From Atractiella rhizophila (taxonomy: Eukaryota): a DNA stretch of 36,359 nucleotides. A program made the position numbers and the translations under genes. The notes beneath the pieces are model-generated. The model was not told the DNA's origin and did not search any database. It was given only the letters and a program-made list of their open reading frames with translations. Each line of letters begins with the position of its first letter. Position 1 is the stretch's first letter. Where the stretch lies: positions 1 through 36,359 of the forward strand of contig MU271640.1 of assembly GCA_021432655.1 (NCBI GenBank), given 5' to 3'. Positions 11,267 through 35,418 of this stretch are shown here, in pieces.

Positions 11267-12382
11267 TTACTGTTTCTTTTCTTCTTTCGCATCCTCCTTT
11301 TGAACCTCTGCTTTCCTTTCGTTCCACTCCTTTTCCACCTCTTCCGCCCACTTCATACTCTCTTCCTCCGAAAAGGCCGCCTTCGACCCCTTAATATGAC
11401 CATCTGGCTCTTTCATTGCAAAGGGATTGAAAGTCGTTTGCCTCTTCAGATTAGCAAGAGTGTGGTTGACAAACTAAACCGCGGCCGCGTTCAGAATATC
11501 CAAGTTGGGAAAGGTCAAAGTGAAATGCTCACGCGATGAGTTGCTTCATCTGCTCGAATGACATAAAGCACATCGACCATTTTGGCGTCTGGTCCTAGCC
11601 TCCAATAGTCTTTCGCAATGTTCGGAGCATCAAGGTTGGTCCATTCGGGCACTCTTCCAGCTTCCAGCTCCTGTCAACCATCGTAACCGTAAGTTTCAAC
11701 GCTGAACGCCAAGAATTGCCCACATACCTCAATGGCGCATGAGTACGTGAAAACGGCTTCTTCTTCAAGTTTTCCCTATCATTCACATCAGCTTCAAAAC
11801 GAAAGCAAAAAGCAAGTTGGAGTGACTCACCACAAAGCGATGGGCGATTCGTGGGGACAACATATAGGAGAGAAAGAACAAGTTGAAAAATACGCTTTAG
11901 TCGATCGATTCATGAGTTCCCCTATCTCTTAAAACAAAAGAGGAGCAGACCCTTGGGCTCCAAGCACAACGAGACGCTGTTTCAGGTCGTTAAGCTTCGT
12001 TCCGGCACGGAGGAGCAAAGATGCGTACAAAGAACCAACCGGGCTCTGAGATCTTCATGAATGTCATCAAGTGCATTCTTTCATTTTCAGCCTCCTCAAG
12101 CAATTCTACACTCCCGGTCAGTTCCGTTCCTCTGGCATTTTCAACAGGAAACTCACTATGGATCCATCCTCCATCCCGACGCATCAGTCTCAGCGAGCGC
12201 AAGTGTCTCAACATTGCTGCTACGAATCCTGGGACGCCAGCGATGGACTCCAAGAATAGGAAACGCATCATCCATTGATCTGTGACCACGTCAACTTCAT
12301 CCTACATGTTGCGTCAAGGCTGCTCACCAGGAGTCATGATGATGCCTCTCTTTCGTAATTCTTCCACTGACATGTTCCTGCC
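11267..12382 (-). CDS. AOX1: Alternative oxidase: catalytic core intact, normal N-terminus missing (possible pseudogene or chimera)
   Basis: [96 protein letters not shown] at 11269-11267. The frame is closed upstream by a TGA four codons before the ATG at 12373. Confidence 0.9.
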
Positions 12383-12438
12383 TCACAGACGACTGCCAGC
12401 GCGCTCGAAGGAACGAAGCGAATGAGAAAGCAACTAAC

Positions 12439-12667
12439 CAGAAGTGCCAAAGAAAGGTGTCACCTCCAAATCCTTCGCCTCTTCCGCCTTCTCCGGATTC
12501 CCCAACGCCTTCTCAGTCAGACTGGGATGGAGCTCCCCAGCTTGGATAATCAAAGACTGTATAGACTGACAAAGCAAGCTTTTCTCCTCGCTGGTCATAA
12601 CTTCGTTGTTTTGGGCTGCAAGATGAGGGGGATTGGAAAATGGGTTTTCAAAATATCGATTGGCCAT
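12439..12667 (-). pseudogene. Orphan first exon of a LanC-like (LanCL) protein
   Basis: MANRYFENPFSNPPHL..EEKSLLCQSIQSLI..DLEVTPFFGTSG followed by a GTTAGT donor at 12438. Resembles the eukaryotic LanCL N-terminus (R-x-F-x-N-P-[FY]) and first GxxG motif from memory; paralogous to the ORF start at 18676. No further LanCL exons follow. Confidence 0.6.
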
Positions 12668-13888
12668 GATGATTGCTTCGTATGAAAGTAGGACGAGTAA
12701 CAGTGCCGACTGGTGCTGAAAGATTTTGTGTGTGGTAGGTGCTCTGAGCAAGTAAGGATTGCTGCCTCCTTTTAACCAGCCAAAAACCTGCACATTCCTG
12801 AGGAATAGCTGCGGATGCCAGGTTGCGCAGCCTTGTGTGACTGCGGTACTGCGACCGACTCACTAACAAGCAAGAGAGTGTTGCAAAGTTCGACCAGACG
12901 AATGTGAACATTCAAATACTCAGAACTTCCCACAGTGTATGCATCAACTTCACGCGAGCACAGGCTACAGTATTGTAGCCTGAAGCAAGTGAAGGTTAAT
13001 AGAATTCGTTGCAGTCCGATCGAAAGGTCTCTTCACTTTGCTAACGATGGCGAGCATAGGAAGGCTTTATTGCGCTTCGGTGACTAATCTCTGCTTTCAT
13101 GCAGTATCGCCTAGTTGTTCAGCTTGACAGGTCGGAAGAGTCGTCCTAGAGAGAATAAATCAGTACATAGTGCAGAATCAATACTAACAGGAGAGAATGG
13201 ATCAGAAAGGTTTTGATCTCATCGTCCAACACCGTAAAGGTGAAGGCTCTCGACGAGCTGGGTTATTAGATTTCAGGCGCATGGCGCCTTTTTTCATCAC
13301 ATCACCGCAGTAAAGCTTTGGAGGAAACAAAGTGCTCACTTATTCATTCAGTTTGACTCTTTCCACACTGTGATAAAGTTACTTCTTCTCATGTTCTTTT
13401 CGTCGCAACCATCATTCCCTTCACTTTCCTCCATTGCCGACATGCACGAAGAGCATGATTTTATCACTTTCACAATTTGTGGCGGCATTTTCCGAAAAGG
13501 CAATCACCGACCCAGCGCATTCCTTTGAGAAGCAACATGAACATCATGAGCGTATGAAGGTCCATGAACTATTGCCTCTACAGGTGGTAATATACATAAC
13601 AAATGGGGATGGGCTGAGAGTGTGGCCCTTTGTTATCTTCAATATTAGTAGTCGCAAGCGAAAGGAAATCCTATGAATTTTCCGTCCCCCCTCCCATCCT
13701 TTGATTCGAGCACAGTCAACAAATCACTCCACATCACCACAGCCTGTGGCATTACTTAGAGAGCTAGTTGAGGGTCTAGATCGAAAGGAAGACGTACACC
13801 AGAAACTCCGAAGAAGAGACTGGGGTATCCATACTTCAAATCATAACAAAGCAAGAAACTCTCTCTCGACCTCTCAGTGTTATCGTTC

Positions 13889-16666
13889 CTAGCCCTCACT
13901 CGGAGCGTGGTCAGGTCTAGAAGTAGTTCTTTGCCTCCTCAAACCAGAGGGAGGCAAGGTAGGAAGAGTTTTCGTCCTCGCGGGAATGGAACCGTGTCCC
14001 GAATCTGAAGCCGCACTTCTATTCGGAGAACCAAAGGGCGAATCGAGACTTCCGGAACCTCCGATCCTTCTCTCATCGTCGCTGAATCCCATCGCTTGCC
14101 TGTATTGCCACTCGTCCACTCCAAGAACTGTGTTCCTATGATTGTTCTCAGGACGTGGAGGGCCAAGGCGGCGGGAGAAGTAGTTAGTGCCGCTGTTGGG
14201 GTTTGCATTTGGAGGATAGTTCTGGTGGGTTGAATTGACCGTATTGATGGTTCGAGTTGAGTTGGAAGGAGAGACGGAGGGGATGACGGAGTCGGAGTTG
14301 GGGCTGCGGAGGGGAGTTTTCGATAAGAGGATTGTTGATCGACCAGCGTTTCTTGATACGATTTTCCTTCTTCTCGATAACTGCTGGGGCTGTGAGACGA
14401 TTGAAGAAATGTCATAACGTTGACATGGACATTTCGAGGTTGATTGAGGAGGGATGACACGGGCACAAACATAGAAGAGCACCAATCAGTCGATTTCCCC
14501 ACGTCTGATAAGAAATGATCTCTGACAAGAGTCAACAACCCAAGACACCGCGAAGAAGAATCGAAAGAAGAAGGCCGACATGATGAGGTGAATGAAATTG
14601 GCAAAGTGAAATAAGAGAGGACGAGGGAAGAAAGGAGAAATAACGGTACAGGTAGCTACGTAGCTAGAATATATGAACGGATCCACTCCCTCCAACGAGA
14701 CTGGGGTAGCATAAATTAAACAGGATGTTTTGGTATTCGTGTCGTTCGAGGGAGGAAGGGAAAAGTCGAATGCAACGGGACGAGGAAGAAGAAAAATGAA
14801 AGGGCTCGTCAAGGTTCTAATATATCCCAACAAGACGCTGAGGTTTTCTCTCTGGAACCCGCGCTTTGAGCCAATCCAGCAGCCATAAAAGCAAGAACGA
14901 ACGAGACCGTTGATCGCAAGTGAACTCACCCTCGGGATTGAGGTGAGGGACTCCTTTCTGTTGATTGCACCTTCGAAGCCATCTCCGCCATCTGGATGGC
15001 GATACTTCGTCAGCAATGGTGACAGGATAATTCAGAGGGTAAGGACTAACTGGCTGATCCTCCAGCGGGACTAAAGAGTTAGAAGTTGCCGTCGACGTCG
15101 TCTGGAGCTCGTTTGTGTATTTGCTCGAAGACTGGGCGTCCAGATTGAACCACGACTTGCGTTGCATCTTTGTGAAGTCGTAAAGATGGAAGCTGCAATT
15201 CAACAATTCATTAATGTCAGGAAACGAAAAAGACGCGGCACGGACTTTTGCTCCATTGATCGATAGTCAGCTGACAACTGATTGATGTCGAGGTTCGGGT
15301 TGCGCTTCTTAGCCTTGAGGGGATTATCTTCGAGCAAGAGTTCCTCAAGTTCGTGTGTTGCGTCAAAGTTAGCTTTCTTGGACTGTTGAATGGAAAAATC
15401 CGACCAAGTCCACCCGCTTAGCTACTCCGTTAAACGGCTATAGAAGAGGAGATACATACATCAGGTTCGAAAGGGGGAACTATCTCCTTTCGTTCTAATG
15501 CGACCCAGTCGACTCCCTTGAACCATGGATGGCGTTTGAGGTTTGCCAGTCCGCCAGTTTGCCTCGTCCCCAGTCGCTTGTTGATGTCCCGCTCCAGGAA
15601 CTGGGCGCAAACCCACACGCTCGGTCAACCGTCTCAACACATCGAGATGTAAAATGAGAAACGTACACCTCGAATACATGATGCAGATTCCGGTGTGATC
15701 ATCTCTCCGCCCGCCCCATCCCTTCCCACATCCTGTACATCTGCCATCTTCACTGACTCTTTAAGGATCGAGTGCGTCAGACTGCTGTTCGTCTTGCCCT
15801 TGAATGGTCGTTTGCCGTACATGAGCTCGTATGCGAGGACACCAAGAGACCACCAATCAATGGTAGAAAAGTATCCACGCTTTGCGAGAATCTCGGGAGC
15901 TAAGTTCGCAAACCGCCTCGGTTGTCAGAATTTTGATGCGTCAAGGGGAGGGTGAAGTGAAGGGAGGACTGACCCATGTATGCCATACTTCCTGCAATAG
16001 ATGTAAGCGGTTTTCGTTCGTTAAAATGAACAGCGATGTTGAAATCGGTCAAGTGGGCATGACCCCGTTCGTCAAGAAGAATGTTGTCCGGTTTGATATC
16101 CCTACACATTTCCCGTCAATTCTGGGTCTACAGCAGTAAAGGCGGTGCAGGGTGGGAGTGAACGAACCGGTGGACGATTCCCCGCTCGTGCAGGTAGTCC
16201 AAAGCCACGGCCAACTCCATGACATAGAACCTCACACGCTCCTGACTGAAGAGGCCCATCCTATCCAGATGAAACCTCAAATCTCCTCCCAACATTAAAT
16301 CCAAAACCATGAATAAATTCTCATCATCTTGAAAGGCATAACGCAAGTTGCAGACGAAAGGACAATCGATCTCTTCTAACAGTCGGCGTTCTTGAATGAT
16401 ATTTTGAACTGCGTGTTGCTTCGCTATTCGAGCTTTATTGATGTACTTGAGAGCGTAGAGCTGTTTTGTCTGTTTGTGCTGAACCACTCGAACCTAGCGA
16501 TCCATCCGGTACCCGTCACTCCACCGATCCCTTGGCTCCAAAAGCAAAAGAAGTGACATACCTTTCCGAAAGCACCTTTTCCTACTGACCGTAAGAGATA
16601 AAAGTGCCAAAGGTCGACGGGAGCGTCGAAATCGATTTCCTCCGGTCTACAACAGAGAGCACCCAT
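13889..16666 (-). CDS. AGC Ser/Thr protein kinase, YANK/STK32 family
   Basis: MGALCCRP lipidation-type N-terminus, [62 protein letters not shown] (DFN typical of YANK), [19 protein letters not shown]. The last exon 14389-13889 is inferred across a 540-nt intron and is less certain. Confidence 0.92.
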
Positions 16667-16864
16667 TCTTGATGAAGATTATCGGTATGCCTGGAGTGTG
16701 GGTATTGGGGTTGTTGGTGTCTCAAGGAAAAATAAAAAATAACGAAGAAGTGTAGATTACTGAAACTGGAAGGTAATAATGTAATAAGGAGGGAGGACTA
16801 CTTAGACGTTGGCGACGCTGCGTCGTGGTGGAAGAGCGAAGAAGTTCGGTTCGGAGGAGCGTTG

Positions 16865-16889
16865 NNNNNNNNNNNNNNNNNNNNNNNNN
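16865..16889. other. Assembly gap (25 N)
   Basis: Run of N. Confidence 1.
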
Positions 16890-17053
16890 TGCTACTTTAG
16901 TCATAACTACCATAGAATTCGACCGACCGACAACATTCTCGTTGACAATCCTAGCTGTTGTACGTATTCGGGCAGAGGCGCTATCTATAGTTTCGTAACT
17001 CTAAGTAAAGGTAGTGTTGGGGTCGAGGACTAGTACGTTTCTACTGCCGAGTG

Positions 17054-19342
17054 CCGTTACAAAGGTAAGTATAGTCTGCACTGTCGACGTTTCCGGAATG
17101 AAGGGTCTTCTAGATAGTAGGGTGTTTTATTTAGTCTTTTGTTCTCTCTACAATACCATCTTTCCATGGTTTCTCTCGTTGCTGAGGGAGGCAGCGGAGG
17201 TCCTTGACCCACCACAGGTGAGGTCCACACCAACTCTGTAGTCGCATCCTCGCGAACTACCATAGTTTCATAGGTCCACATCGGTAAAACTACGACTAAA
17301 ACACGACTAGACCCACCCTCTAAACCTCCTCCGGAAGCAAAATACGAAAATACGTTCAGTTAGCCCTACGCGAACTAGCTCTAACAAACGAGCATAAACT
17401 TAACACCACGTACTGATTTCTTCATGATGTTTTCATGGGTTGGTGGTGAAATCTGGAGAAAGACCGGTAAAGTGCTACTCGCACGCATAAAGAGGGAAAA
17501 ACATAGTGAATTAGAGTGCCTAGCCGACCTACAAGTCCATTAGTGGTTGGAAAAGTTCGCGTTAAGGCAGAAGCAGAGGTGGCAGCGGCACTGTCGGAAG
17601 CCGAAGAGGTAGCAAAAGCTCTTCCGGTGTTGGCGAAAGACCCTGTTGGTGTTGGCCCCACATTCGGAGAAGGAGACACATGAAAACACTCCTGTCTTCC
17701 TCGACTACTTCCCTACCCTTGTCTTTGTCACCTTCCTATAGTCTGTGTTCATACACCTCCGACTCCTCATCTCGTCTCGTCTCTTCGTTACCTTAAAAAA
17801 CTCGTAGCGACTAAACAAATTTGCACTCACCTACTACCAATGAACTGCACCACACACGAGGAAAGAGAGCAGAAGGAGGCCCACCTTTGTCTTCCACAAC
17901 AGCATTGGACGGAGCCCAGTAACAGAAGATACTCGCAAGATGGAGTGTGAGCATGCGGATCAAACGCGCTTCGTAGACGAAACCAGCCTTCTCGTCTACA
18001 AATACACTCGAGACTTGACAAAAAGAATCGAGAAAGCCGAAAAGACGGTAAGTCTGGCAATTCAAACGGGAGCTGTAATAACGCTACCGTACTTGCCTTT
18101 CTGACTCTCACTCTTCGACCGATCGTAAGTCATGAGAAATTTCGCTTCGGCACATCGGCACGGTTTGCCTCTATTGGTTTTTAGCCAAGCTCCAATGTAG
18201 TTGAGCAAACCTCAATTTTTGATACCTTTTTTCGACAGTTAGTATACATGTCGTGATGCCTAACTCTTTATACTAGTCGAGTCGGCCACGAAAGGGAGGG
18301 TTTCGCGACGTTCGAAGCCCATACCTTGCAACCGCACTCCCCGGTCGCAAGAGTCGAGTCGCAAGCCAAGGGGCCTACTTGGACTTGATTCGTGAGAACC
18401 CTCACCGAAGTTACCGTCGGCGAAGCCTGGGCGCGCCGCACTGATAACGAACTGTAAGCCACACTCGCAGCCACGCTCGCTTTTAAAACGTTCCTCTCCC
18501 ACTCCACTTTCCTCGGCAACCAGGCTCCGAAGTTATGCACGAGTCCAAGAACACCTGGGTGAGACAGTGTGGAAGTACAGTACAACACACTGAGTTGAGT
18601 TCCCTATATTTTATCACCCCGTAATACCGGAGAAGATCTGGAGAGTAAACAAAGACTCAATTCTTGCCTTTTTTTTACCCGCTAGCGATGAAGCTCTTAG
18701 GAAAGAACAGGGAAGGATTCCTACCTTGATATCGCCTACTTCTTCTCTTCTGCCAGGATTCCGTCCGTTAATACCTATTGTATGAGTACAGAAAATCAGA
18801 GCGCGTCAAGCCGCCGCACCAGCCGAGTCGGGAACTCTCGAATCGCTGGTCGAGAACGAGAAGGGGGAGAAGAAGCGAACTGCGACCGAAGGACTGATGT
18901 GGCTGCTTCGCGGACTGAGGTTCACACACGCTGCCATGGCTCGATCGCTGCAGAACAAGGGCGAAGAGCTCACGGAGAGCTTCACCAAGGCATATGAAGG
19001 AAGCTTGAAACAGTTCCACAACTTTGTCGTCAAGGGTGTCTTCACCGTATGTGTTCTCCCTTCTCTGCATTTCGTCTCCTCTTTTCGCTCGCGATATTGA
19101 TGCGATCGATGATGGAGTAGTTGGCCATGAAAGCCTGCCCATACCGCAAAGACTTCTACGCAAAGCTGGGCTCAGACCAGGCGAAGGTCGAAGAACAGCT
19201 CGGTGCCTGGCTCGACGCTTTGGGCAAGATCATCGACCACATGGAGAAATTCTAGTTCGTCCTTCCCACTCTCAGTCCTCTTCCCAAACAAATAAATGAC
19301 CCTGGTTCCAGCCAAGACGGAGGACACAACAAGGGTTTCTAG
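17054..19342 (+). CDS. Glycolipid transfer protein / HET-C2 homolog; exons 1-2 lie in the mirrored block
   Basis: Backward reading 17286->17169 and 17112->17054 gives MATPGYFDTIKRSYADVSTTPGVDTTQFLEATEGVVALF|DLLGSKAFAAVTSDMNGNIA. Normal plus strand from 18792 continues KIRARQAAAPAESGTLESLVENEKGEKKRTATEGLMWLLRGLRFT..AYEGSLKQFHNFVVKGVFT|LAMKACPYRKDFYAKLG..QDGGHNKGF*. Confidence 0.93.
17476..17771. CDS. QCR9: Cytochrome bc1 complex subunit 9; readable only as the plain complement left-to-right (minus strand once the block is corrected)
   Basis: Complement exons 17476-17481, 17538-17660 and 17724-17771 with GT..AG introns give MS|VITNLFKRNSVFVSTVAVTAFGFSIVFEKATTAFWDNHNRG|KQWKDIRHKYVEAEE* (58 aa). 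Confidence 0.93.
18676..18780. CDS. 5' fragment of a LanC-like protein gene in the mirrored block
   Basis: Complement left-to-right gives MGDRYFENPFLSLPKDGTIADEEEKTVLRQAIMDN, with TATAAAA at 18606-18612 in the same reading. It aligns by eye with the 12667 exon. Confidence 0.6.
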
Positions 19343-19782
19343 ATTCTCAGCCAGAAGAAACCAATCGCATTGTCATAGTCCAAATGATCAAGGTGTAGAT
19401 TGCATTTCCTCCTGATCTTCATGATCAGATTTCGTTCAGGGTTCAATGTGGATAGTGAGTGGGAGGTAAGGGTTGCAATTCATCATCAGTGAAGCAGTGT
19501 AACGATTTTCGATTCGATTGAGGATTGAGGATTGCATATTCACGATTAAAGAGCAATAAAGAGGTCGAACTACCTAGTTATTTTGAATGTTAACGATAAT
19601 AAGAGAAGGAATCTCGAGAGGCGAGGACGCGCCAAGAATCCAAAGCGAATGTCGCTCAAAGCCCAAAGGACAAATCCGAACCCAAAATCCCCATCGTCAA
19701 TCAGACCGAACAGACAACTCCACCTGCATCCTTCTTCTACCAACTTTCATCTGATGTCACAACCTTCTCCCACCATCTTCAT

Positions 19783-21081
19783 CTAATAGTCTTGCACCTC
19801 CGGTGCCACCCCTCTACCCTGAACCGGCCTTGGATAAACCGGTGAGCTCATGAGGTTATCTCTCATCCTCGGATCGTAGTCGTCCCTCGCCAAATCCGTC
19901 CTCACGAATCCATTGCCTCCGCCGACGGCACCATTGCTCAGTGGCGACGGGGAGAAAGCAGAGAAAGACTGGGACAGGGAGGTGGAATGTCCCCCTCCAT
20001 TTCCATAGCTAGAACCGTGACTGCTGGTCGAGAAGGGGGTCGTGGAAGGCATGGGAGGAGGGGAGGGGAGCATCCTCCTCGAACCCGTCGTAGAAGACGC
20101 TCGGGAGTGGGAATGGGAAAGTGACTGAGATTGGGAATGGGAGTGAGAGTGCTGATACTGTGACAGGAGGCTCGGCATCCTAGAAGGAGGTGAGGGGGCG
20201 TCGTCATGAGCGAGTGGATAAGGTTGAGAGGAGGAGGTGTGAGAGAAGGAGGAGATGGCCGGGGACAGAGCTCGCTCGTACACTTGCGCGGTTGAAGGGC
20301 CGTTTGGGTTCGGCAGTGCGCGCATGGGCGAGGGTTGGATTGGGGTCGAGACTTTGGAGGGAGCGTTTGGTTCGGGAGGAAGACGACGGATGGAGACGGA
20401 GGGAGAGATGGCTGATGCCGGGGCGGAGGCGGGGACAGGTAGGGCGGTCTGGAGCTTCGGGAGGGAAGTAGGGGAGGGAACGGTTGTGACATTGCCGTTG
20501 CTGTTCGTGGTGGGAAGGACGGGAGTGGGTTTGGTGGAGATGGGAAGGGGAACGGTCGCGCCTACAGCAGGCGAGGCATCGGGAGAAGTGAAAGCGGAAT
20601 GGTCGGTGTGGACCTCTTCCTCTCTCACCAACGCCTGCAGCGAATTCGGATTCGGATTCTCATTCTCGAACGAGAATCCATCGACGGCGTCTTGATCAAG
20701 CGCTTTCGCCTTGCCTTTGTCCTTCCTCGGAACGAACACCACCTCGCTCTCCTCACTAATGCTCTCCTCGGCTCCACTCTTTCCGCTCTTGCTCCTCCCT
20801 AGATCTGAACGCGGCATCGAGCCGTTCCTCCCCAAGCTAGTCTGACCGGCGTGCCCCTGGGCGCCGTGAGAGTCGCGGGAAGGAAGGCTTGAGTTCCTCC
20901 CCAAGATGGATCGTGGATTCGAATCGTTCCTTCCCAGACCAGCGCCGGGAACGAAACCAAAAGAATCCACGGATCTAGCCAAGGACCCTGTCCTGCTGAG
21001 GATCTGAGACTTATCAAATCCTCTCCCTCCGCTGTGTTCCCTTCCCATGTTCAAGTTGTTCTTCACACAGCTCCTCGACAT
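19783..21081 (-). CDS. Pro/Ser-rich low-complexity hypothetical protein; possibly the 3' part of a larger or truncated gene
   Basis: 432-codon ORF, GC-rich relative to its flanks, with LGRxxS repeats, Pro-rich tracts and an HS repeat. No recognisable domain. Confidence 0.65.
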   Translation of the reverse strand: MSRSCVKNNLNMGREHSGGRGFDKSQILSRTGSLARSVDSFGFVPGAGLGRNDSNPRSILGRNSSLPSRDSHGAQGHAGQTSLGRNGSMPRSDLGRSKSGKSGAEESISEESEVVFVPRKDKGKAKALDQDAVDGFSFENENPNPNSLQALVREEEVHTDHSAFTSPDASPAVGATVPLPISTKPTPVLPTTNSNGNVTTVPSPTSLPKLQTALPVPASAPASAISPSVSIRRLPPEPNAPSKVSTPIQPSPMRALPNPNGPSTAQVYERALSPAISSFSHTSSSQPYPLAHDDAPSPPSRMPSLLSQYQHSHSHSQSQSLSHSHSRASSTTGSRRMLPSPPPMPSTTPFSTSSHGSSYGNGGGHSTSLSQSFSAFSPSPLSNGAVGGGNGFVRTDLARDDYDPRMRDNLMSSPVYPRPVQGRGVAPEVQDY

Positions 21082-22077
21082 TTGGAGGGTGGGTTAGACT
21101 ATTTTCAGTTTCGGTGATGATCAAGGCGGGCCGTATCTCCCTCTGGTCGATCATGCATCAGTTGCACCTTCCAAAGAAAGTGGTTCTCGTGCTAGCCTCG
21201 ATAGCTGACTAAGGATCCATATTTTGATATCTTGTTCATCTTAAGCAAGTTCACCGAGGAGCGATAGGTAACTCCTTGAGGGGATGTCTTTTTATTCTCA
21301 GTCAAAGAGGACGCTTGTTCTGAAGCGTACGATAGATGGTAGACACCTTCAGGTCATCACCAAAAATTTTTCTGTCACAATCATCTCATCTGAGCTGTGA
21401 ATTCCTGAAGAGTACAAGATCGAACATACACTGCGCCGCGTGCAAACCAGAAAACCTGCCAGAAGAAAGTGAAAAAGTTCTGGCTACATCATGAACACGA
21501 ACCAGCTCCAAACTCAATGTTGAGCGAAAAGGACGTGAGAGAATCCTGGTAAGTTACTGTACAACCTTCTTTGATGAAAAGGATGAAGGAGACGTTGTAT
21601 CTCACCAAGAGGGGATCGTTCCATTCGAGGGATTGTTGCGAATAAAAATTGGCTCCCTGACAGAAGTTATCAGGATTATGACTGCTCAGTTCCGCAATTG
21701 GGATGGCGAGTCAGCATATTTCATTCTACCAGCTACTCTTGCAATTCATTATCACAAATGAGACGGTTATGATAGGAGAGGACCAGAATTAAAAGAAGGG
21801 ATTTTTGCGAGAAAACACGTGAAGGTAAAACACGTAAAACCGAGGCACAATTTGCAATCCATTCTTCAATCCTTTGTTGACTTCATCAATTTACTGACAC
21901 GACTGACTTGGTTTATCGTAATCAAAAAAGAAGAGGCGAAAGAAATAAGTTATGGATTGCAATGCCACATTTTGACGCTTTTCCTTCAACAAAACAGGTA
22001 ACCGTTACAGAAATCGACGACAAGTAAGTGGAGACACACGAAGGAACTAAAGAAAAGACATTAGGACGACGGCGTGC

Positions 22078-24979
22078 TCAGATTTCCAGTTCCGTTTTGA
22101 TGTCGCCATTACTCGGATTGGGAGGATGAGGGAAAGTGGCAGGGAGGAAAGCAGCAATTTCATCTTCTATTCTTGAAGGTCCAGAATGTCCGTTCGTCGA
22201 GGGAAGGAATACAGCAATGTCTGTCGAATTCTGATTCTGTTGGGCTGGCTGAGAGCTGGTTGATTGGGCATGGAGATCGGTATGATATCCGTTTTGAGGA
22301 GCTGTAGGCTTGATGTCAACATCCATACCATTCCGCCAAACTGTCTTCTCAACAGTTACCATAACCGTCCTCTTCTCCAGCACCGTATTCCCTTCTTCGT
22401 CTAGCCCGAACCTCTTCGTAACCGTGTTATTTGTGATGTTCGTTGTGACGGTTGCTTCTCTTGCACCAAGATCTTGCCTTCCTGGATCTACCCTCATCTC
22501 TACCCTCTCGGTATGTTGTACCGGTAAAGTCTCCCTCGATATTATCTCCCCTTCATGTGACGCTTTCTTTCCCTTTAGGGCCTTCTTCTTCGCTCTCCCT
22601 CCTTCCGCCGAATCTTCTATCACACTCAGGCGTCTCTTTTTCGACAGCGCTTCAGACACCACCGACCCTTGACGCTTCTGAGCGGAAACTGTAGAGGCGG
22701 AGCGACGCCGTTTATCAACTTCGAGATCATCTCCATCATCATCATCTCCCAACGCGTCCACGACAAGATCCTTGAAATGTTGGACGAAATCCGCAGGGCT
22801 CATCGTCTCCTCCTCCAGCTTATCGTGAGGCACAGACTCCCTCGCAATCCTTCTCTCGTTCGCACTCACGTCCGTCGCTTTCTTGCCATCCAAACGTCGG
22901 ACCTGTTCGAAGAGGAAACGAGCAAGGTGCTTCAAACCTTTGAGCACTCGAACGTTGATGTCGGCTGGGAGAGGGGCGAGAGGATCGGTCTCTTTGCATT
23001 TGCGGAGGCGTGCGGCGTACGACAGCGCTACATACCAACAAAGACGTTCGTATTGAGGGAAACGGAATTTCTTGGGCACCTTCGTGACCACCTCAATATC
23101 GTAGACTCGCATCTGCGTTCCGATGTTGAGACTAGCATAATTATCAGTGGCTGAGTTGTAGAGACAGCTTAGAAGTTACCTGTGAAGGAAGTTACCACCA
23201 ATGACGAGAGAATCGGTGGGCGTATACTATGAAGATCATGAGCGATTGGTTCCAAATTAATTGACTGAAGACAGACGACTGCATGAATCCATCCTGTAGG
23301 AATGATAGCTGTTGATCCTTGAGGCAGATCTAATCTGTAGACTTTGTCGACCTCACCACCTAGCCAGCTATTCTCTTGTTGTTCGGTGCTGGAGCTCCAC
23401 TTCTCGTACTTCTTCAAATTTTCTGGAGTCGGTCGGATGAAATAAAACACTTTTGACCCTCGAAGAATATGGTAGAACACCTGAATAAAGGTCAACGCGT
23501 ATCATGCAAGTAGATGAGCAGAATCGTACTGAGGATCCGGCGAGCTTTCCGTCCAGTTTCTGCGCTTCGGCGATTTTCGAGTCCGGTTCTTCCTACGACG
23601 AGTCTGACCCTTCCTACAAACCCAACTCACACTTTCCAGGCAGAGAAAATCCAAAACCCCCCATACCAACCAGCAGATTACCAAGTTCCCATACCCCTAC
23701 TGGGGGGAGGTTTAATTTCTCGAACGTCGCCGAATCTTTCTACACTTTCAGTGTGTAGACTACATAGGTCAATGAAAATACGATAGATGTAGCAAGTAAA
23801 AACAATAGCCCATCGGACGTGCAAAAAGAAATTGGACCAACCGTAAGTACCACTTTAAGTTTTACATAGGATTAGAAAAAACTAAAACACCGTCGACGTG
23901 TTGCACCATAGTAACCAGCACACAGTTACTCTTAGGATTTCTGAGGGAACTATGGCAGCTATTCCACGCTTTCAGAGAAGACTTCAGTATGACCTATAAT
24001 TGGTTGTTACCCTGTCACCATGACGAGCGGGACGAACCTGAGGTAGGGTCTGGAGTTTTAATGGAAGGCTCGTGGTGGTGCTTTCAGTCGTGCTTTACGC
24101 CCTTACGGAGTCTAGTTGATAAGGTTGAACTTAGTTCCTTAACTCAGGCTGGGTCCAGCGACCCAGTTCGACAACCTCTTGAGTTGCTTGCCTGCGTCTT
24201 TGCAACAATGGTGTCTAGTCGATGGAGTCTCAACCTTCACCCTCCTACCTCTTCCCGACCTCCTAACCTAAACCCCTGCTCCTAAGTCCCCTTTGTGGTT
24301 GCCACTATGTTTTTTCCACCTGTTCTTCCTTCCTTCGCTCTGGCTTTCGCTCCTACCTTTTCTACTGAAACTACTCCTACTTTCACCCTACTCGGTGGGT
24401 TAGCAATAGTCTGTTCCTTACTTCCCTCAGCCCTACCTCAACGGCGTCTTGAACTGTCACGCTCTCCAACGACTCTAACAACCATACGAAAATAGACCGT
24501 GTAAATAAACAGTTACTGACCAAGTGGCGTCCGGGACTGTGAGGCCATCTCCATTAATAGTAACGAACTACGATCTTTAATAAATTAACGAAAATCCAGT
24601 AACTACAACGTTCGGTCTGACCTGACTTTCTGACCTGCCAACCTGCGACCCGTGTTATGATGTTGCTAAGCGCTGGAGCTCTGTTTTAGGCTTTACATTA
24701 GTCAGATCTCCAATCACTCAGTTTCGATCCTCTCTTTTAACTTTACGGCCTTGGGCAGTCCAAGCAAGCAGGAACTTACGTCATCCTGTGGTATGACTTG
24801 GGATCAATCCTTTAACCTGACCCAGTGCTTGAAGACCGGACTTCTGGCTGCACCGGGTCCTGTCATGGGCTTCCAAGTTTTTATAACGGAATACTCGCAG
24901 TCGGTGACGACCTGTCATTCAATAGAAGGCGAGACGACTCAGGTAAGACTGTGAAGGCGTCCTAACCGTGTAACTGAAG
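22078..24979 (-). CDS. JHD1: PHD + JmjC histone demethylase (KDM2/Jhd1); 5' half in the mirrored block, start codon in the gap
   Basis: Complement of 23542-24979 gives WVECE|SCTTWYHWSCV..K|WYCSPC (PHD), LTVREVAEIVG|PDTPVE|VIDVASQ, IRNVISLEVS, LDWVTNFWP..YPKVQKYCLMSVSHCWT|DWHIDF. The normal minus strand from 23541 continues AGSS|VFYHILRGSKVFYFIRPT..IPTGWIHAV|YTPTDSLVIGGNFLH..VPKKFRFP. Confidence 0.95.
23542..24979. other. Mirror-reversed segment (reversed, not complemented); probable assembly artefact
   Basis: The plain complement encodes a run of spliced JHD1 exons. Its last codon (TTC, 24977-24979) joins exactly to GCC starting at 23541 on the minus strand. Confidence 0.97.
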
Positions 24980-25146
24980 NNNNNNNNNNNNNNNNNNNNN
25001 NNNNNNNNNNNNNNNNNNNNNNNNNNNNNNNNNNNNNNNNNNNNNNNNNNNNNNNNNNNNNNNNNNNNNNNNNNNNNNNNNNNNNNNNNNNNNNNNNNNN
25101 NNNNNNNNNNNNNNNNNNNNNNNNNNNNNNNNNNNNNNNNNNNNNN
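24980..25146. other. Assembly gap (167 N)
   Basis: Run of N. Confidence 1.
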
Positions 25147-27361
25147 GCTGAGAAGGATCTATTAGTCGCCCAAAGTGAAGATACATCTTTCAGTTCACTC
25201 TCAAACGCCTTTACCGCATTGCACCTCAAGTCTCCATCACCCCAAGACCAAAAGAGAGAAGATCCCACCATTGGATACAAGGAGCTTGGAGACAGAGAAA
25301 CGGCATCTGAGTCTTTAACACTCTCAAGCTTTGATCATGGCACGATTTTTAATGCAAACACAAGGGACGATGCAGCCGCACTTACCTTACCCACCAGCCC
25401 ACGCACCGCCGTGATCTTCCAGCCTTCTTGTCTCCTTCACAAGTTCTTGCGTTCTTCAGATCCCGGAGACGTGTCTATGTTTCCAGAAAGACCTGAGCGG
25501 TTACGTGCGATCAAGATTGGAACAGCCGCGATTGTAGGAAGATTGCTTGCTTCAGTTTCAGCGGTAGATTTTCAAGGTACCAAATGGTCGGAACACCAGG
25601 CAGGTGACACCATAGACAGCCTTTCTGCAGGATTGAAAAATCTTGACGTCGCTGAGGGAGCAAGCAAAAGCCGAAAACGGAAGTTTCTAGACATGATTGG
25701 AGTTCAACAACCGTTCGACATCCTTTCGTCTCCTCGCCTCACCTCTTTCCGCGATCCCGCTCTTCTCTACGTCCACCAAGGCCTAAGTACCGGCATCGAT
25801 ACTACAACTTCGAAGGAACACACGTCTTATCCATCTCAACTTGAATCTTGGTGCCTCAAAGCACCAGCCTCCGCCCCAACCTCCTCAACACCTCACGAGC
25901 TCGAAATTCCTCCTTATCTCCCTTCCGGAGATTTATATCTGGCTAGATCCTCCTCTCTTGCCATTCGCGGTTCGTTGGGGGCGATGGCAGACGCAAATGA
26001 TTTGGTTTTCTCACCTGAGTCCACGCATGATAAGAGCTTCGTTGCTGTAAGACCCCCTGGCCATCATTGTGGGGAGAGCAATCCCCAGGGATTCTGTTGG
26101 GTGAACACTGTCGCTTTTGGCATTGTGGATGCTTATATGCGACATGGAGTCAACAAAGCCATTATTTTTGATATTGACTTACACCGCGAGTCTTTTTTTC
26201 GGACAGAGCTAAGCAAACACGCTCATTTCATGATTATTTAGATGGAAATGGAACGCAAGAGGTTGCTTGGGAAATAAATCGACGATATACTCAAGCTGTT
26301 TCGACTGCAAAGAAAGGAACACCAAAGAAAGGGAAGGAAGACACTCCCAAAAGTGTTCTGCAGGTCTTTTACGGCAGCTTACATGACATCAATTCTTACC
26401 GTGAGTCTATTAGCGCTGCTCAATATCCTCCGTTAACAACGTTTATAGCGTGTGAAGCTGGGCTGGACGAATTTGTCATCCCTGCATCCACAAACATTTC
26501 TGGAGGGCCAACAAACCAGTACATATCCAACGTTCACCTTGAGCCGTACAAGGATGCGAACGATTTCTACGAGCGTCTTTATCCTACGTATTGGGCAGGT
26601 TTGGGCGGGAAAGCTTTGGAATTCTTACAGAAAACAAACACAACAGAGTTGGACAAAGTTGGAATTTGGATAAGCGCTGGTGCATTATCTCCTTATTTCA
26701 CTTTTATGATTGCTGACACTGATGTGTAGGCTTTGATGCTTCCGAATTTGAGATGGACACAATGTCTCGCCACAAAGTAAAGGTACCCACCTCTTTCTAC
26801 TCCAGGATCGCTAGAGATACGGTTATTCTTTCGCACACCATACCTACCATTTTCTCCTCTGCTGCGAACTTTAGCCAGGCATCTCTCAAGCGCAGCGCAC
26901 GACGGACCGCACCACCCTCTCAAGAAACAAAACCTTTTCGTCGTCCCTCAATCATATCTGTGCTAGAAGGTGGCTATTCTGATAGAGCGCTTACTAGCGG
27001 GGTTGCAAGCCTATTGCAGGGATTAGTCTGGGAGGAGGTTGGAGGGTCGATGGATGAAGAAAAGGAAGAATGGTGGGCTGCGAAAGAATGGCTGAAGCTC
27101 GAGAAGGCTTGTGCTCCTGCCCATGAGGAGAATGGAGACACGCCGAAGAGGAAAGCGAGGCAGGTGAAGAGGGATGATTGGGTTGAGTATGCGAAAGCTA
27201 TCTTCGCGGAATTGGAGAAGGAGGTTAGCGAGACGACGGGAATGATGAAGGATGAGCTTGAGAAGGAACGGCCAATACAAACACCTCAGACCGATAAACC
27301 AGTTGCGTTCCCCGTCAAGAAGATTCGATTGGTTCGAAAGCAAGACCAATCACAGTCATAG
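25147..27361 (+). CDS. HOS3: Fungal Hos3-type histone deacetylase; start codon in the gap
   Basis: Frame is open from the gap edge. ERPERLRAI, LPSGDLYL, VAVRPPGHHCGESNPQGFCWVN, DIDLH|HGNGTQ, YGSLHDINSYP|CE, ISAG|FDASEFE..MSRHKVKVPTSFY, SVLEGGYSDRAL. Confidence 0.92.
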
Positions 27362-27731
27362 ATTTGATGTGATTCAGTCTACCTTTCTTGTGTTTACCGT
27401 TGCCTTGTATATTTCACAGTCTGTTTTGAAATGACGTTCAACTTTGTATATTCGTTGGCACCGTAGTCGTGAACCTGGGTGAGACCTACTTTCAGCCAGT
27501 GTCCAAGAGTTTGTCGTTCTAATACTGCATTCCTCCTGCTGTAATTTCGCAGCGGATCTTCGATGAGATGCCCTGGAGATGCAGCGGACGGACCATCTAT
27601 CCCCTACCAAGTCACCTTTTCTGCGGACGGCCACCTTCACAGCCTTGCGTGTCACGAAGGTGGAGGTATAAGAACTACCGAATTTCTACAGAAGGAATTG
27701 CATCAACGCAAGTAAACCTGAGGTGGTGAAG

Positions 27732-28672
27732 ATGAGCATTCCAACGCCAAATCGAGCTAGCTATCTCCTTGTAAGCGCCCTTTAGACTCGGAGCTGAGGG
27801 AACTGATGAGAACGATACCTATGTACGTAGACTCCGGAATCACCACAAATTTTGTCTGCAGATGTTTTGAGGCCTAACGCAATCTTGCTCGTTCGAGACT
27901 TTGATGGAACGAAGGGACGTTCCTCATTTGAAGTCACGGCAGTCTGTGCCCGGATCTACATTTGTACGTTTCTACCACGAACTCGTGAGAGCTCGAGAGC
28001 AGCTTATTCACCACTACCTTAGATAAAGCAAGCAACTTGACACTGAACTTCAAACCCAACTTCCGGCTGCTCGCTTCCACGCTCGAGCTCCATGAATCCC
28101 ACAATGTTTCTCTCAACTTCTCTCCACTGTTCACCGAACCTCCCATATCGCTCTTCTCCTTCGATCATCCAGCTCATTCCATCAACGTTCACTTTGGCAA
28201 GAAGGAACTTCTGAAGGACGTCAGCATCGTTGTTTGTTTAAAGAAAGGATATGTCGAGAAGATGCAGGCTGGCCAAGGAGCAGAAGATGATGGATCAGGC
28301 TTCAAAGACTTCATGGTGTCTTATGATCCATCAGAAGCAGCTCCGTCGCCTTCAGTCAACGAACCGTGGCACTCGCCCTCGCTGAAACTCACTTCCCCGG
28401 ATGGCATGCTAACCGATGACGTGCTTCGGATCGTTTCCTATCCCTCAGTGCAACAGATGGGTGAAGGACAATATTCGCTGCGTTTGTTGGAAGAAAAGAG
28501 GTGGGAGTTTCGTTGGCTCAAAAGGGACAAGATGGAGTATTTTGAACTGCACCCCGAACAAAGAAAGGGTCTATTGAACGACAAAGTCAAGGACAGGATT
28601 GATAAGGGTGTTCAGCAGTATTCAGAGGGAAAGTCCTTTGAGGAAATTGCGAAAGACATGAAAAAGGAGTGA
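27732..28672 (+). CDS. Hypothetical protein (3 exons)
   Basis: ATG at 27732 (MSIPTPNRASYLL), introns with GTAAGC and GTACGT donors, and a last exon of over 210 codons ending EEIAKDMKKE*. Confidence 0.7.
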
Positions 28673-28996
28673 GTGTATGGCGATTCGTAGTGCAAGGGAG
28701 TTTTGGTGTGTTGAATCTCTGCTTGTATCATTGTCAATCCAAATTGTCATTGTTTTGCTGCAATCATTCTGACTGGATTACAACATGCCAAACATGCCCG
28801 CTCCAGATGCAGGATATGAAAAGGATGGTGAAGTATGGTGACCCTCGTAATGATAAAGTTATAGGAACAATATCTGCTTTCGCAGCTAACTAGAGCTCCC
28901 TCAATTGCCCTCAAGCGAGTTCACACGGGGGTCAGCAAAGTCTTCAGCGAAGAGAGTCCAGAAGTTTGAATCCAGAAATGCCGGTTCCTGACAGAC

Positions 28997-29042
28997 TGAC
29001 GTCGCGATATATGACGTCATTTTTGCCTGCCTGATATAAAAG
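28997..29042 (+). promoter_or_regulatory. Two CRE-like sites plus a TATA box
   Basis: TGACGTCG at 28997-29004, palindromic ATGACGTCAT at 29011-29020 and TATAAAAG at 29035-29042, about 100 nt before the ATG at 29141. Confidence 0.6.
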
Positions 29043-29140
29043 GGCACGACTTCCTCAGCTCACTCAACGACCAGCAACGATCAACTGAACAACCAAAGCA
29101 ACTTATACAAGTCCTCTCGCTTATTCACAATCATCACACC

Positions 29141-29745
29141 ATGTCCTACGCAGACGCCGCATCCAAAAATACTGGGGGAGACCACGGCGTCCAGCCCGTA
29201 AGTAACCTGTTCCCTTCCGTCCCACGTCTCAGGGCTCATGCAGACTGTAACTATCCAGGACCCTGTGTTCCTGGACGATAAAGACACCGATGCTCTACGT
29301 CGAAAAGCTCAAGACTTGAAGGCGGAAGGGAAGGCAGAGCTCGATGCGGCAGAAGCGAGAGCGGAGAAGGAACGGAAAGAGTTTTTGAAGCGAGAGAAGG
29401 AGCTGGAAAAGAAAGCGAGGGCCGAATATGAGAAGGGGAAGGCTAAGGCTAAGGAGTATGGAAGGGAGGGAAGGGAGGAGTTCAATAGGCATCCTGCTGT
29501 CTACACCACAGCTCTTAGCGCTCGTGAGTTCCTCTTCCTTGTCTATCAGCAAGGACTGGTTTTGATTGGCTGAATGTGACGTAGTGAACGTTGCGATCGT
29601 TGGCGGCGTTGCATATTGGAGCTATCAAAATTGGGACAGGACATGGGACAGGAAACTCGTTACGGCGAGCGCGATTGGTTTAGGAGCATGGTTTAGTCTT
29701 CAAGGCTGGCTGGTTGAGAAGCTGGGCATCGAGCAGAGGCAGTAA
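29141..29745 (+). CDS. Small coiled-coil protein with C-terminal membrane segments, OM14-like mitochondrial outer-membrane candidate
   Basis: MSYADAASKN start, Lys/Glu-rich helix, then NVAIVGGVAYWSYQNWDRTWDRKLVTASAIGLGAWFSLQGWL; 2 introns. The gene model is solid, the family call tentative. Confidence 0.65.
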
Positions 29746-30058
29746 ATCAATGGACCAAATTCGAGTTTTATTTGACGCATCAGTGTAAAGTTATAAACGT
29801 TTTTTGTAATCGATCTGCTCTCTCCATCCTCACCTTTCTCCCGACTCAGTTTTTTGAACGACAGCACAGTGAGTGTAATGGTGATGACGAGCAAAGATAC
29901 AGAAAGAGAGAGTTTTGATTGTCCGCGTATGTTAAACGAGTTCAAAAATAGGTTCAGGGTTCAACGAAGAACATCTCACCCTTCGTTGAACCCTCACGAA
30001 ATCCAAAGGGCACGAATTTTCCATGCAACAAGCACAGCTCTGTCCATCATCAAAGCAT

Positions 30059-32347
30059 TCAAAGCATCAAAGCAGCTGCAACAACCACACCTACGGCCCC
30101 AACAAGGCTCACTCCCACACGTCCAGCCGCAGCCTTCTCGTTATCCGATGTTGAGTTACCCTTCTTCGGCGACGAATTGCCGGTGGTGGTCGCATTGGTA
30201 GCTGTCGAAGCAGACGAAGAGGTGGTGGAAGTGGTAGAAGAGGAATCCGTGTCAGCTGTGTCGACAGCAGTGGCGGTGATGGCGAGGTTGAGTTTGGCGG
30301 CTGAGATCTTTGGGTTCTGCAAGACTCCTCCCGTCAATTTGCCCGCCGTGTACTCTTGGAAGGTCGGGTAGGAGAGAGAGACGTCCCGGTAGACCTGGGT
30401 GTTGTTGGTGCACGTAGCAATTGGGACGATGTGCTTGAAGTTCTTTTGGATGCTGGGATACCTGTGTTCGATTGTTAGATGCTTTGTCTTGGGGAGGATC
30501 GAAATAAAGACGCACTCGCCAATCCAAGTAGGCATATCTTCAGCTGGCATTTCGTGATCGAGAACGATGGTACCCGTTGTATCAAAGTTCTTTGCGAAGA
30601 TCCTAACATCTCGATATCAGCATTGATGCACAATGAGTCGAAGAAAACTGCGAAACAACGAACCCGTCAAAGTTCTTCTTAATCTCAGGAATGATCTTTG
30701 CGCCACCATCCTGAATCTTCCAATCGAAGGTATCTGCCACACCTTGATCAGCTACTTCCTCCTTGCTAAACCAACGGCAAGCGTACCATTGTCCCAAAGA
30801 TTGGTGCTCAAACCCAACGCTTCCGCAATGGCGCGCACTCGGTTGTCCACATCTCCGAAAGGAGGTCGCCTGTGAAAATGAGAGTCTTAGCTCTTCGGCG
30901 TTTCCGAAGTGAGGGAATAGCATACCAGCTGTCGCAGAAAGATTCCCGTCAGCCATGGATCAGTGAAATGAGGAGGTAGAGATGACGAACCAGGTCACTG
31001 TGACACCGACGACTTGCTTGATGGCTTTTATGGGATAGTAAAGTTCAGCAAAGAGCTGGTCATTGCTCAACGATGTCATGTACTGGATCGGTGCGTCTCA
31101 GTACCAATGCAGTCAAGGAGGAGGAAAGATGAGACAGACATTGTGACTAGATGACAGTACTGGTTTTAGTGATTGCGGATGAGAGAAGAAGAACAACGGA
31201 CCTCCAGGTGTGGTGGCAGATCTCGTGTCCATCAGTTGCTGCCCTTTGAGCTTGTTTGGGCAAGGTAAGAACATTCCCACCTAAACCATTCGATTCGGCT
31301 CAGCACTTCTGCAGAGTGTTCGAAGGTAGTACTAACCAATGAAGAACATGGTAGCAAGCTGGTTATTATCTGCCAAAAAGTCGTACAGCTTGTCGTGGGA
31401 GCAAGATGGTCCCTAGATACCGCATCCCAAAGTCCGTTCAGTCAACTATGAATAGACAATGACATCGACGGAGGAGGTAGACGAACATCATCAAAGGACA
31501 ATCCCTGTTACGGCGCAGTCGTCAGAATATCTATAAAAGGGCAAGGAAAGTGGAAAAGGGAGACATACCCAAGTTGAAGGCTCGGAACAGGTGTACACAT
31601 CTGGGCGGATATATTTCTCCTTGGGCACCTTGCACGTCGTATCTTTTCAAATCAACATAGAATAGAGAGTCCATCAGCGACCAGCTGGCCTCACAGGGGA
31701 AATTGAAGAAGAGGACGCACAGGTCCACCAACAATCCGGATCCGTAGTTCCGTCGTATTTGACCTTGGAGAAGTCACCGTAAAGCTCAGGACTGCCCTTC
31801 GGCTTGATAGCCAGCGCATCCTATCGGTCCATTCTTCCGTCAGAACAAGCTGCAGGATGAAAATCGCTAAGGAAAGATTCTACAAACCTTGTATGTCTCG
31901 TTGGCTTGAATTGCAGCCCAGACTTTGGCAGCTTCTGTGTCGCCCTTGGGGATGGTCGCGATTTGGAACGCTTTCTATATCCACAACTGCCATCAGCAAT
32001 CTGGTTACGAGATGACAAAGAAGGGAAGGAGATAAAAATAGAGAGAGAGAGAGAAGGGATACAAAGTGATAGAATAGGAAAAGAAGAAAAAGAAGGAAAG
32101 AAAGGGGAAGACATACAGGAAATCCGCCCACGATATCAGTTATCAAACTCGACTGATCCTCTGTGCAGGCATTATTATCCGACGTGGCACGTTTCAACCA
32201 CTCCTGATACTTTCCAGCCAAGTTGAGCGATGGGTCAGACCTTTTCAATGCGCGCTCGATACCTCCATGATGATGGCCGTGGCCGTGGGAGCCGTGAGCG
32301 TTGACAGTTGCACTGGAGACGGCGAAGAGAAGGAGAGGCAAGAACAT
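30059..32347 (-). CDS. CE4 chitin deacetylase (MP98/Cda-like), secreted with a GPI-type tail
   Basis: Signal peptide; [91 protein letters not shown]; Ser/Thr-rich stalk and hydrophobic C-terminus. Confidence 0.93.
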
Positions 32348-33206
32348 GATGGTATTGGTATTCGCGAGAATTGTTATTATTGCAAAGGAGCGAAGTGATT
32401 AGTTGGTTGTAGAAAGAGCGTAGATGGCGTCTAGCTGGTGATGAGGGATACTTGTTTAAGAAAAGTGGCGGCCTTCGTTCTTATCGAGCGAGAAACGGCG
32501 TCAGATTGAACTGAGAAAGGTTCCAGAAGAGTCGTGGGAAAGGAGGTCGCTGACTCCAACTCCAATGGACGATGGACGGGACAAGTCGAAGATATTACTG
32601 TAGCGGGAGAGGTCAACTGGAAAGGAAGGCAGACGATTTATGAGAAACAGCGGAAATGAAGGGGACAACGCAGCAAAAAAAGTGGGAAAAGCGAAAAACC
32701 TTTTCGGTGAATCTAACGCTTTCGCGCGGGATCGAGTAACATTGCATAAGGCGGGCTAACCAACGCACGCTTTGCGTGACAGCGCCGTTCCTTTGTCCTG
32801 CCGTTGTCAGGCAGCTAGAGACTGCCAAGCAGAAGAGCCAGCTTCCAGGAAAGTGCTCCTCGGGCTATATTTAGATCAGCGGGCGAGTAGTGCGTTGTGC
32901 ATTGTCTGTGCGCGTTTGACTTGACGTGACTAGCACGAACTGGAAAAACTAAGGGTCGTTCTCTCGCTTCTCCTGGCGTATATTACTAGCACTTAGCAAA
33001 TGATCAATGAAGCTATTGCTGAGCGAATGCAATCCATGATAGCAGGTTCTGACCTGAGTTTGACTACGAGAAATCTGCAAGGTATTTCATTCATTCCACA
33101 GAAAGAGTAGCAACACACACCAGATTTTTTCTCAGTCTTTCTGCACGACTTGACATACACAATCCGTTTCCCAACAGTCTAACATGTAGATAGTGACATC
33201 GATAGC

Positions 33207-35418
33207 TTAAAGGGCCAACATCTCCGCTACCTTTTTCTGATTCGTTTTCATCTGCTCCAATTGCAGCTCTGTCCTCCCAAAACGCATCAGTATCCTCTCA
33301 CACAGCTGTAAGAAAACAAAGTAGATGCGAGTGAGATGATAAGGAAAGGAGACAAACCCAAGTTCCTAATGAGGTGATCCCTCTCCGCCAACTCCTCCTT
33401 CAACCTCGCATTCTCATCCTCAAGCACCATAATCTTCCTCGTCGTCTCCTCATCCCTCACGCCTTCCATCTTCATCGGTTCCTCCCTCCTCTCTTCCACA
33501 AAAGTCGATTCCTTTTTCACTGGGGCAGGGATCGTCTGTTCACGCACGGGAGTAGGAGCGGGAGCGGCGGCTGGAGCGGGTGCAGCAGCCGGCGCAGGTG
33601 CTGGTGCAGTCTGGGTTGGAGTGGGGACGGGGATGGATTGTTGCTTGTGTTGTTGCACGGCGGGGGCGGAAGAAGCCTGTTGAGTCTCCAGGTCGAGCAT
33701 GATTGGAGCGGAGGTCTTCCCGGCGAAGAATTCGGAGGAGGTGAGCGCGGGTTTGGCGGAAGGGGCAGGGGGGAAGATGTCGGATTGGAAAGTCTCCGAC
33801 TGGTCGTCATCAGCATCAGCACATCAATAATTTTCGACCTGCAAGAAGAAAGGGAGGCAGCCAGAGACTGACTTTGCGCGGTACAATGAAGGAGATCGGC
33901 TCGATCAGCGTTCCTGAGCACTTGAAAGCTCGCGCGATCTCGCACTCTGAGACGTTGAGGCCGCGACGAGGCAGGAAAGTCATTCCTCGCTGAGGTTCTG
34001 AGGACTTATACTCCGAGCTGTCCATCGATAACATCAGTTTGCGCATAAGTGGATGGGAAGCCAACGACTCACAGGAAGAAGAGGTCATCGTTCTCGTACT
34101 CGTAGTATCGGATGTTACCATCACTAACACCATGATCAATATCTCCCCATTCCGCTGTGAGACGCGCCATACCCCTTTCCAGCCAGATAAAGGATATTAT
34201 TCCCCTCTCCCCAGAACGGCATCAGCGTTCCCGAGCTCGTATCCACCGTGATACTCTTGATTGGCCCCCTCTCAAGATTTTTCGAGTCCCAGAGCTTAAC
34301 CTCTCGATCCGACATCTTCGAGAAACCGGTGGTAGCAATCCTGTCTAAACTGCCCATCCAAGCCACGCGAGAGGCTTTGATGCCCGCGTGCCCATCAACG
34401 ATCTTGACTGGAGCTGCACCTGACCGGGGATCGAACAGGCGGAATTTCTTGTCCCTACAGGTACTACATATCGGCGAAAACGTGAGAACGTCCAATGGCA
34501 GCAGAGACAGAGAAGACCAACGTCGAGATCAGAGAGCCGGTCCAGTCCCAAGCCATGCTCTGGACCATGTCAGGTTGACTATGCAGTTCAATAGCAGCAG
34601 AGCCCTTCTCAACATCCCACAACTATACCAGAGCAGCAAACCAGTCCACTTCACTCATCCCTGACGGTAAAGCGAAAACGCACCTTGATCTCTGTGCTCG
34701 CGGTAGCGAGGACGTTGTTCGCCGTCGGGTGCCAGCTCACATGTCCCACCTTCCTCTGATGAGCTTGCATCTTCACAACAGGTTCCAAGTCCTTGATTTC
34801 ATGCCCTTTCCCTCCTTTAGCTGTGTCAGCGTGAGATAACCAGGCTTGTTCCAGCACGTCGGGGTCGATTCGTGTGAGAGCAACGCGGCAATCTTCACCG
34901 CAAGAAGCGATAAGATAATCATCGAAGGGAGACCAGGCAGTGTCCAGCCTGCCCATCACCAACACCAGTTAAGCCAACTCTTCCTTTAATTCCAATCAAG
35001 ATGAGACTTACACTGGCGCCGTGTGACCTCTACAAAGCGGATAGATATCAGGGAGCTTCCCGGTCCTCCCTAGAGAGGTGACGAGGAATGCTCCGCCACC
35101 AGACACCTGGTAGTTCACAGCGAGGAAGAGCGGGTTGGCGGATACGAGATCGGTATCGAAAGCATTGGCGGAGACTCTAACGTTGTCGTACGTCTTCTCC
35201 CTGCATCTCCCATCTCAACCCATGTTTCCACTCCTCAAAGGGACAAAGGAGACCTTTTCGCTGGCTATTTGGACACGTTTAAAGAAAATCCAAGCTGTAT
35301 TTTCAAGAAAGGCTCACCGATCCATACACATGCCTGTAGCTGGACGATCGAACAAAACGACTGTACAAGAGATGAGGGCTAGCGCCTGAACAGAGTAGAT
35401 GGGGGCACCGCACCTCAT
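33207..35418 (-). CDS. CRN1: Coronin (actin-binding WD40 protein with C-terminal coiled coil)
   Basis: MS|RFVRSSSYRHVYGS|PAKR|EKTYDNVRVSANAFD..GGGAFLV, LDTAWSPFDDYLIASCGED, HQRKVGHVSWHPTANNVLAT, GHAGIKASRVAWMG..TTGFSKMSDRE, IEPISFIVPRK, then a coiled coil; TAA at 33209-33207. Confidence 0.95.

Follow-up and report, generated by a model that had tools for sequence, protein, structure and literature searches.

Background

Yeast Jhd1 (KDM2) is an Fe(II)/2-oxoglutarate histone demethylase that acts on H3K36me1/2, and T302/H305 are the residues cited for it (excerpts of PMC8329514). The gap filler PBJelly belongs to a very different literature. According to excerpts of its description (PMC3504050), it can extend the flank of a gap from one side, leave a reduced gap with leftover N, and overfill gaps that sit at scaffolding errors; excerpts of PMC8848313 describe the accuracy of fills as modest. 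A third strand is that of 'swinger' events, which have been claimed for mitochondrial sequences, including the 16S gene of a stonefly in a deposited mitogenome (excerpts of PMC4942731). All three bear on a single gene of the fungus Atractiella rhizophila, a demethylase of the Jhd1 kind, part of which is written backwards in the public assembly. The window we analyzed is the entire 36,359-bp scaffold C461, taken from an assembly of 51.5 Mb in 1998 contigs, and it holds two runs of N (Table 1).

A block written backwards

The original prediction was that the letters 23542-24979 had been reversed in order and that a JHD1/KDM2-type gene has its 5' half hidden there. Both C380, another scaffold from this assembly, and the contigs of public sequencing runs bear this out. 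On direct reading the coordinates, letters and edges are as had been claimed: the complement of the block, read from left to right, finishes with GAT TGG CAC ATT GAC TTC (DWHIDF) where it meets the 167-N gap. From 23541 the minus strand gives GCC GGA TCC TCA (AGSS), next to which comes a GT..AG intron.

C380 supplied an independent copy of the gene. Searched with 22500-24979, it matches at 99% identity up to 23541, where the match stops. As written, 23542-24979 has no match on C380 on either strand; reversed, it aligns with C380:15195-16623 at 98.5% identity over 1437 nt (E=0). The region is free of N, and C380 continues from the equivalent of 23541 directly into the reversed block with DWHIDFAGSS uninterrupted. 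Three homologues from other fungi (P0002-P0004) match the block in its complement reading only and match 22081-23480 as written only. Judged from these alignments, neither the match of the reversed block to C380 nor the homologue matches are due to chance. That the reversed string fits an independent copy and the written string does not is equally true of a second block in the window (block 1 in Table 1) and of C509:4148-5673 on another scaffold.

Two further readings of the letters agree. A word-order statistic trained on the remaining window goes negative over 23542-24979 and over 16890-18785. With our chosen exon coordinates, the introns are GT..AG in six of six cases in the complement reading and in none of six under any of the other three, a count to be taken as consistency and not as significance, since the exon coordinates had been picked on the complement reading.

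The same searches bear on an ordinary inversion or translocation, in which one JHD1 allele would have been broken by a reverse complement. The scaffold interleaves two loci, as described below, which is a possible trace of rearrangement between haplotypes and speaks for such an event. However, an inversion would give an other-strand match to C380 as written, and there is none; moreover, the window's own allele is intact in both DNA and RNA contigs. We regard its probability as negligible.

The corrected gene

When the six block exons (exons 2-7a in Table 1) are joined to the four normal exons, the result is one open frame of 719 residues that corresponds to residues 60-778 of P0001. P0001 is the 778-residue product of the C380 copy and carries the public source name 'Clavaminate synthase-like protein [Atractiella rhizophila]'. 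Over that span the corrected window copy differs from it by three substitutions (A176T, R473C and P479L), and T334, H337, D339, K354 and H410 are all kept. Residues 1 to ~28 fall in the gap and are missing from the window copy, whose exon 1 also carries two one-base insertions. Reversal puts the block in its right orientation, but because of these insertions it does not by itself recover the frame whole. Similarly, most of the PHD finger does lie in the block as predicted, but the ATG and the first CxxC do not; by comparison with C380, both are in the N-gap.

Table 1. Coordinates of the JHD1 gene, the mirrored blocks, the gaps and the false joins. Positions are those of the window unless another scaffold is named.
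Feature	Position	Strand or reading	Remarks
JHD1 exon 1, 3' part	23542..23636	complement reading	extra single bases at 23566, 23574
JHD1 exons 2-7a	23895-23964, 24017-24482, 24532-24551, 24597-24760, 24810-24915, 24962-24979	complement reading	P0001 residues 60-340, including T334, H337, D339
JHD1 3' part	22078..23541	-	exons 23541-23530, 23480-23277, 23226-23180, 23131-22078; K354, H410, JHD domain, tail; Pfam JmjC and JHD
167-N gap	24980..25146	.	true length 289 bases (C380:16624-16912), with the first CxxC and the start codon of JHD1
Mirrored block 2	23542..24979	.	1438 nt, order reversed without complementing; true neighbor of 23541 is its 24979 end
Mirrored block 1	16890..18785	.	1896 nt, reversed in place; 16890 end belongs beside 18786; complement corresponds to C509:25548-27451, 94.9%
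25-N gap	16865..16889	.	false scaffold join
Gap-free false join	21006..21008	.	C509-like to 21006, one unmatched A, C380-like from 21008
Further mirror segments at N-gaps	C330:2107-4135, C420:3972-5094, C530:10799-14194		called on the word statistic alone; outer ends approximate

What the correction yields is an ordinary spliced gene for a PHD-JmjC-JHD histone demethylase of the Jhd1/KDM2-KDM7 type. The PHD, JmjC and JHD matches of P0001 all exceed their Pfam cut-offs, and its Pfam results hold no JmjN, F-box, CXXC or LRR match. The Fe(II) triad of the JmjC domain, H-x-D...H, is H337, D339 and H410 in both P0001 and the corrected window copy; T334 and K354 we take to be the 2-oxoglutarate-binding threonine and lysine. 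By analogy, its substrate would be H3K36me1/2 and the gene would be the ortholog of yeast Jhd1.

The original prediction also warned that an uncorrected JHD1 would look catalytically dead. This is true of the window copy but not of the assembly's other copy, which is intact and annotated (P0001). For JHD1 itself nothing has been lost, and the relevance of the block is one of data quality only. A search of public proteins of 200-639 aa for a truncated product of this scaffold found four distant proteins, none of them from the scaffold.

A histone deacetylase gene, recognized by Pfam, lies head to head with JHD1 at 25147-27358; in C380 at most a few hundred bases separate its open frame from the JHD1 start.

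Sequencing runs

We aligned four of the 24 listed public runs to 16890-24979; the other 20, whose word shares are small, were left aside. All four came as run contigs and not as raw reads, with 30 loose letters displayed at each end. Runs X1 and X2 are DNA from a single sample, possibly the source of the assembly; X3 has spliced joints (two, plus one spliced loose end, within 22078-23541); and X4 stops short of the JHD1 junction. Depth over both mirrored blocks is zero in all four.

What the contigs do contain is the corrected junction, into reversed sequence, which appears in three of the four runs, from two samples and once in spliced form, with DWHIDF-AGSS restored. None of them supports the 23541/23542 junction as written, the observation that the original prediction had named as its refutation. 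The X1 and X2 contigs exit the window at 23543; their 30 displayed letters are those of the reversed block, and some 2,070 further letters follow. The X3 contig exits at 23480, with the intron spliced out and the DWHIDF-AGSS join present. The allele is also the right one: the TTC codon of the window, which is TTT in C380, is seen in normal orientation in X1, in X2 and in the spliced X3 transcript.

An excess of A>G differences in the aligned runs raised the thought of editing, which we rejected: at 29 of 35 examined sites (40 displayed, 129 listed) the run letter is the allele of the other scaffold.

These contigs weigh on a more exotic reading, in which the mirrored segment is real and was made in the cell by swinger polymerization (A<->T plus C<->G) in one nucleus or haplotype. 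The claimed mitochondrial events are a precedent of sorts; rare variants get dropped from contigs, and our run contigs cannot exclude rare molecules. Against this stand the absence of any depth over the block in the four runs, the normally oriented window allele in contigs of DNA as well as of spliced RNA, the placing of every mirror segment at an N-gap and a read-error signature within the block (the last two are taken up below). We know of no polymerase that makes a parallel copy. The probability we give to a swinger origin is close to negligible. That the mirrored block is an assembly artefact and not biology, and that in the organism the DNA past 23541 is the reversed block, we hold to be very nearly certain.

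Two loci in one scaffold

The first mirrored block has a history of its own. We had considered it complemented in place and joined at 18782, which is wrong; it is reversed in place, and X1 and X2 have loose ends at 18786. The block conceals a QCR9 gene (window ~17541), recognized by Pfam in the C509 copy at E 2.7e-14, as well as the 5' part of a GLTP gene. The start of a third gene lies at its far end.

That both mirrored blocks abut N-gaps was correctly predicted; that the first ends at 18781 was not, the actual end being 18785. Nor do the two blocks flank a single core at 18782-23541. The core begins at 18786 and is crossed by a false join at 21007, with 18786-21006 belonging to the C509 locus and 21008-23541 to the C380 locus; the mirrored blocks therefore extend two different contigs. 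The runs agree: all four break at 21006 and then follow C509, and X1 and X2 come into 21008 from C380 sequence. Across the window, the C380-like pieces are 10083-12383, 13818-16864, 21008-23541 and 25147-36359, and the C509-like pieces are 12383-13821 and 16890-21006. The genome search did not return C380 for 25147-36359, to which it is 97.8% identical, so our copy counts are lower bounds.

A number of oddities accompany this interleaving. An alternative oxidase gene (Pfam AOX at 11993-12301) has lost its 5' part to the stretch 12383-13821, which is like both C509 and C288 and has no N at its joins; the same scaffold interleaving is the probable cause. C380:7590-9151 carries a stretch matching the one replaced. 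The three copies of the piece (window:12383-13821, C288:1010-2442 and C509:28898-30327) differ pairwise by 19, 39 and 30 substitutions, with private alleles in each, and may stem from a duplication, from a third haplotype or from mixing in the consensus. A 25-N gap at C380:5268-5292 joins C288-like to window-like sequence. When projected, the C509-like pieces fall where they stand in the window, give or take a few hundred bases, as if two loci had been overlaid at a fixed offset, and a real rearrangement between haplotypes could lie behind the overlay.

Elsewhere, head-to-tail duplicates at C509:10363-16642 (96.7%) and C136:14556-18875 (99.0%), with no N between the copies, are probably two alleles written in tandem. 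For window:8028-10082 we found no second copy in the assembly, in a search that misses some copies, and a long minus-strand frame at 7569-9155 is without a Pfam match.

Mirror segments at gaps

Was the window unusual? We scanned 543,075 bases on 18 scaffolds and found six mirror segments, all six at N-gaps and none elsewhere. In a detection control, 40 of 40 planted reversals were recovered; eight of the scanned scaffolds doubled as training, and the planted test was run on the rest. Outside the window, a mirror block occurs at four of 20 gaps and none at the other 16, amounting to about 8 kb of the 507 kb sampled from mid-sized scaffolds. The blocks measure 1.1-3.4 kb, and each has a contig end on one side and, on the other, a gap that is shortened or 25 N long; seven of the 22 sampled gaps are exactly 25 N, which we take to be the PBJelly filler for overfilled gaps. 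The block at C509:4148-5673, compared with its copy on C147, has the geometry of both window blocks, being reversed in place with its contig-side end facing the gap. It is the mirrored part of a repeat, C509:4148-8000, whose family matches the assembly in at least 29 other places. We set aside two stretches of the window with weakly mirror-like scores, 1-500 and 32501-33000: in their written form they align to C136 and C380, and the segmenting scans did not call them.

The letters of the JHD1 block carry a signature of their own. Compared with C380, it has 13 substitutions and nine indels. Ten of the 13 substitutions are transitions, as would be expected of alleles. All nine indels are a single extra base in the window, each extending a run of the same base; all fall in 23566-23876, in the 335 nt at the end most distant from the true anchor. 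The flanking normal stretches, by the same comparison, have one indel in 1042 nt and two in 3854 nt. Allelic differences could account for some of these nine insertions. Because they cluster at the far tip, the pattern suggests that the fill reached into the gap on a consensus of few, error-prone reads.

The sequence of events we favor within the artefact reading would run as follows. After scaffolding, a gap-filling step would have added 1438 nt to the contig that ends at 23541, working into a gap of an estimated ~1605 nt and leaving 167 N (1438+167 = 1605 nt; the span is really 1718 nt). The order of the added letters would have come out wrong, as happens when a fill assembled from the opposite strand is complemented without also being reversed. 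The traces point to a gap-extension step that mis-orients its fill, for which long-read flank extension of the PBJelly type is the best-fitting class of tool, and probably the right one. One-sided extension into a gap, leftover N and overfilling at scaffold errors, as described for PBJelly, would fit what is seen in this assembly; fills reversed without complementing are absent from the excerpts of PMC3504050 and PMC8848313.

The error could instead have arisen at some other step: when files were converted between formats, during manual patching, in a gap closer that worked on short or 454 reads, or when the record was handled later on. In its favor, a literature search for a reversed-fill defect tied to a named tool found none, with nothing relevant in excerpts of PMC8081667. 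Overcalls in single-base runs occur in 454 reads too. Against it are the kilobase size of the blocks, their position between contig end and shortened or 25-N gap, and the frequency of gaps of exactly 25 N. Given an artefact, we think another step less likely than a long-read flank extension but quite possible.

Does it matter beyond one gene? Mirrored blocks escape both six-frame translation and BLAST, with false gene losses and truncations as the outcome, and they take up roughly 1-2% of what we sampled, a set biased to mid-sized scaffolds. It is possible, and we put it forward tentatively, that a gap-filler orientation defect writes kilobase fills backwards at about one in five gaps and is silently hiding genes in other assemblies made likewise. 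The same defect may account for some of the published 'swinger' DNA. A simple word-order test detects mirrored blocks.

Comparison with known demethylases

Saccharomyces cerevisiae Jhd1, like P0001, has an N-terminal PHD finger and a JmjC domain, P0001 being without JmjN in Pfam. The two differ in size, 778 aa for P0001 against 492 aa for Jhd1, and P0001 has a long tail without a Pfam match. Residues 203-476 of P0001 match the catalytic domains of human PHF8, KDM7A and KDM2A (PDB 3kv4, 3kv5 and 2yu1) with E values of 4e-82 to 4e-76, scores so nearly equal that sequence alone cannot choose between H3K36 and H3K9/H3K27/H4K20 as substrates. In PHF8 and KDM7A, the residues that align to H337, D339, H410, T334 and K354 of P0001 are identical.
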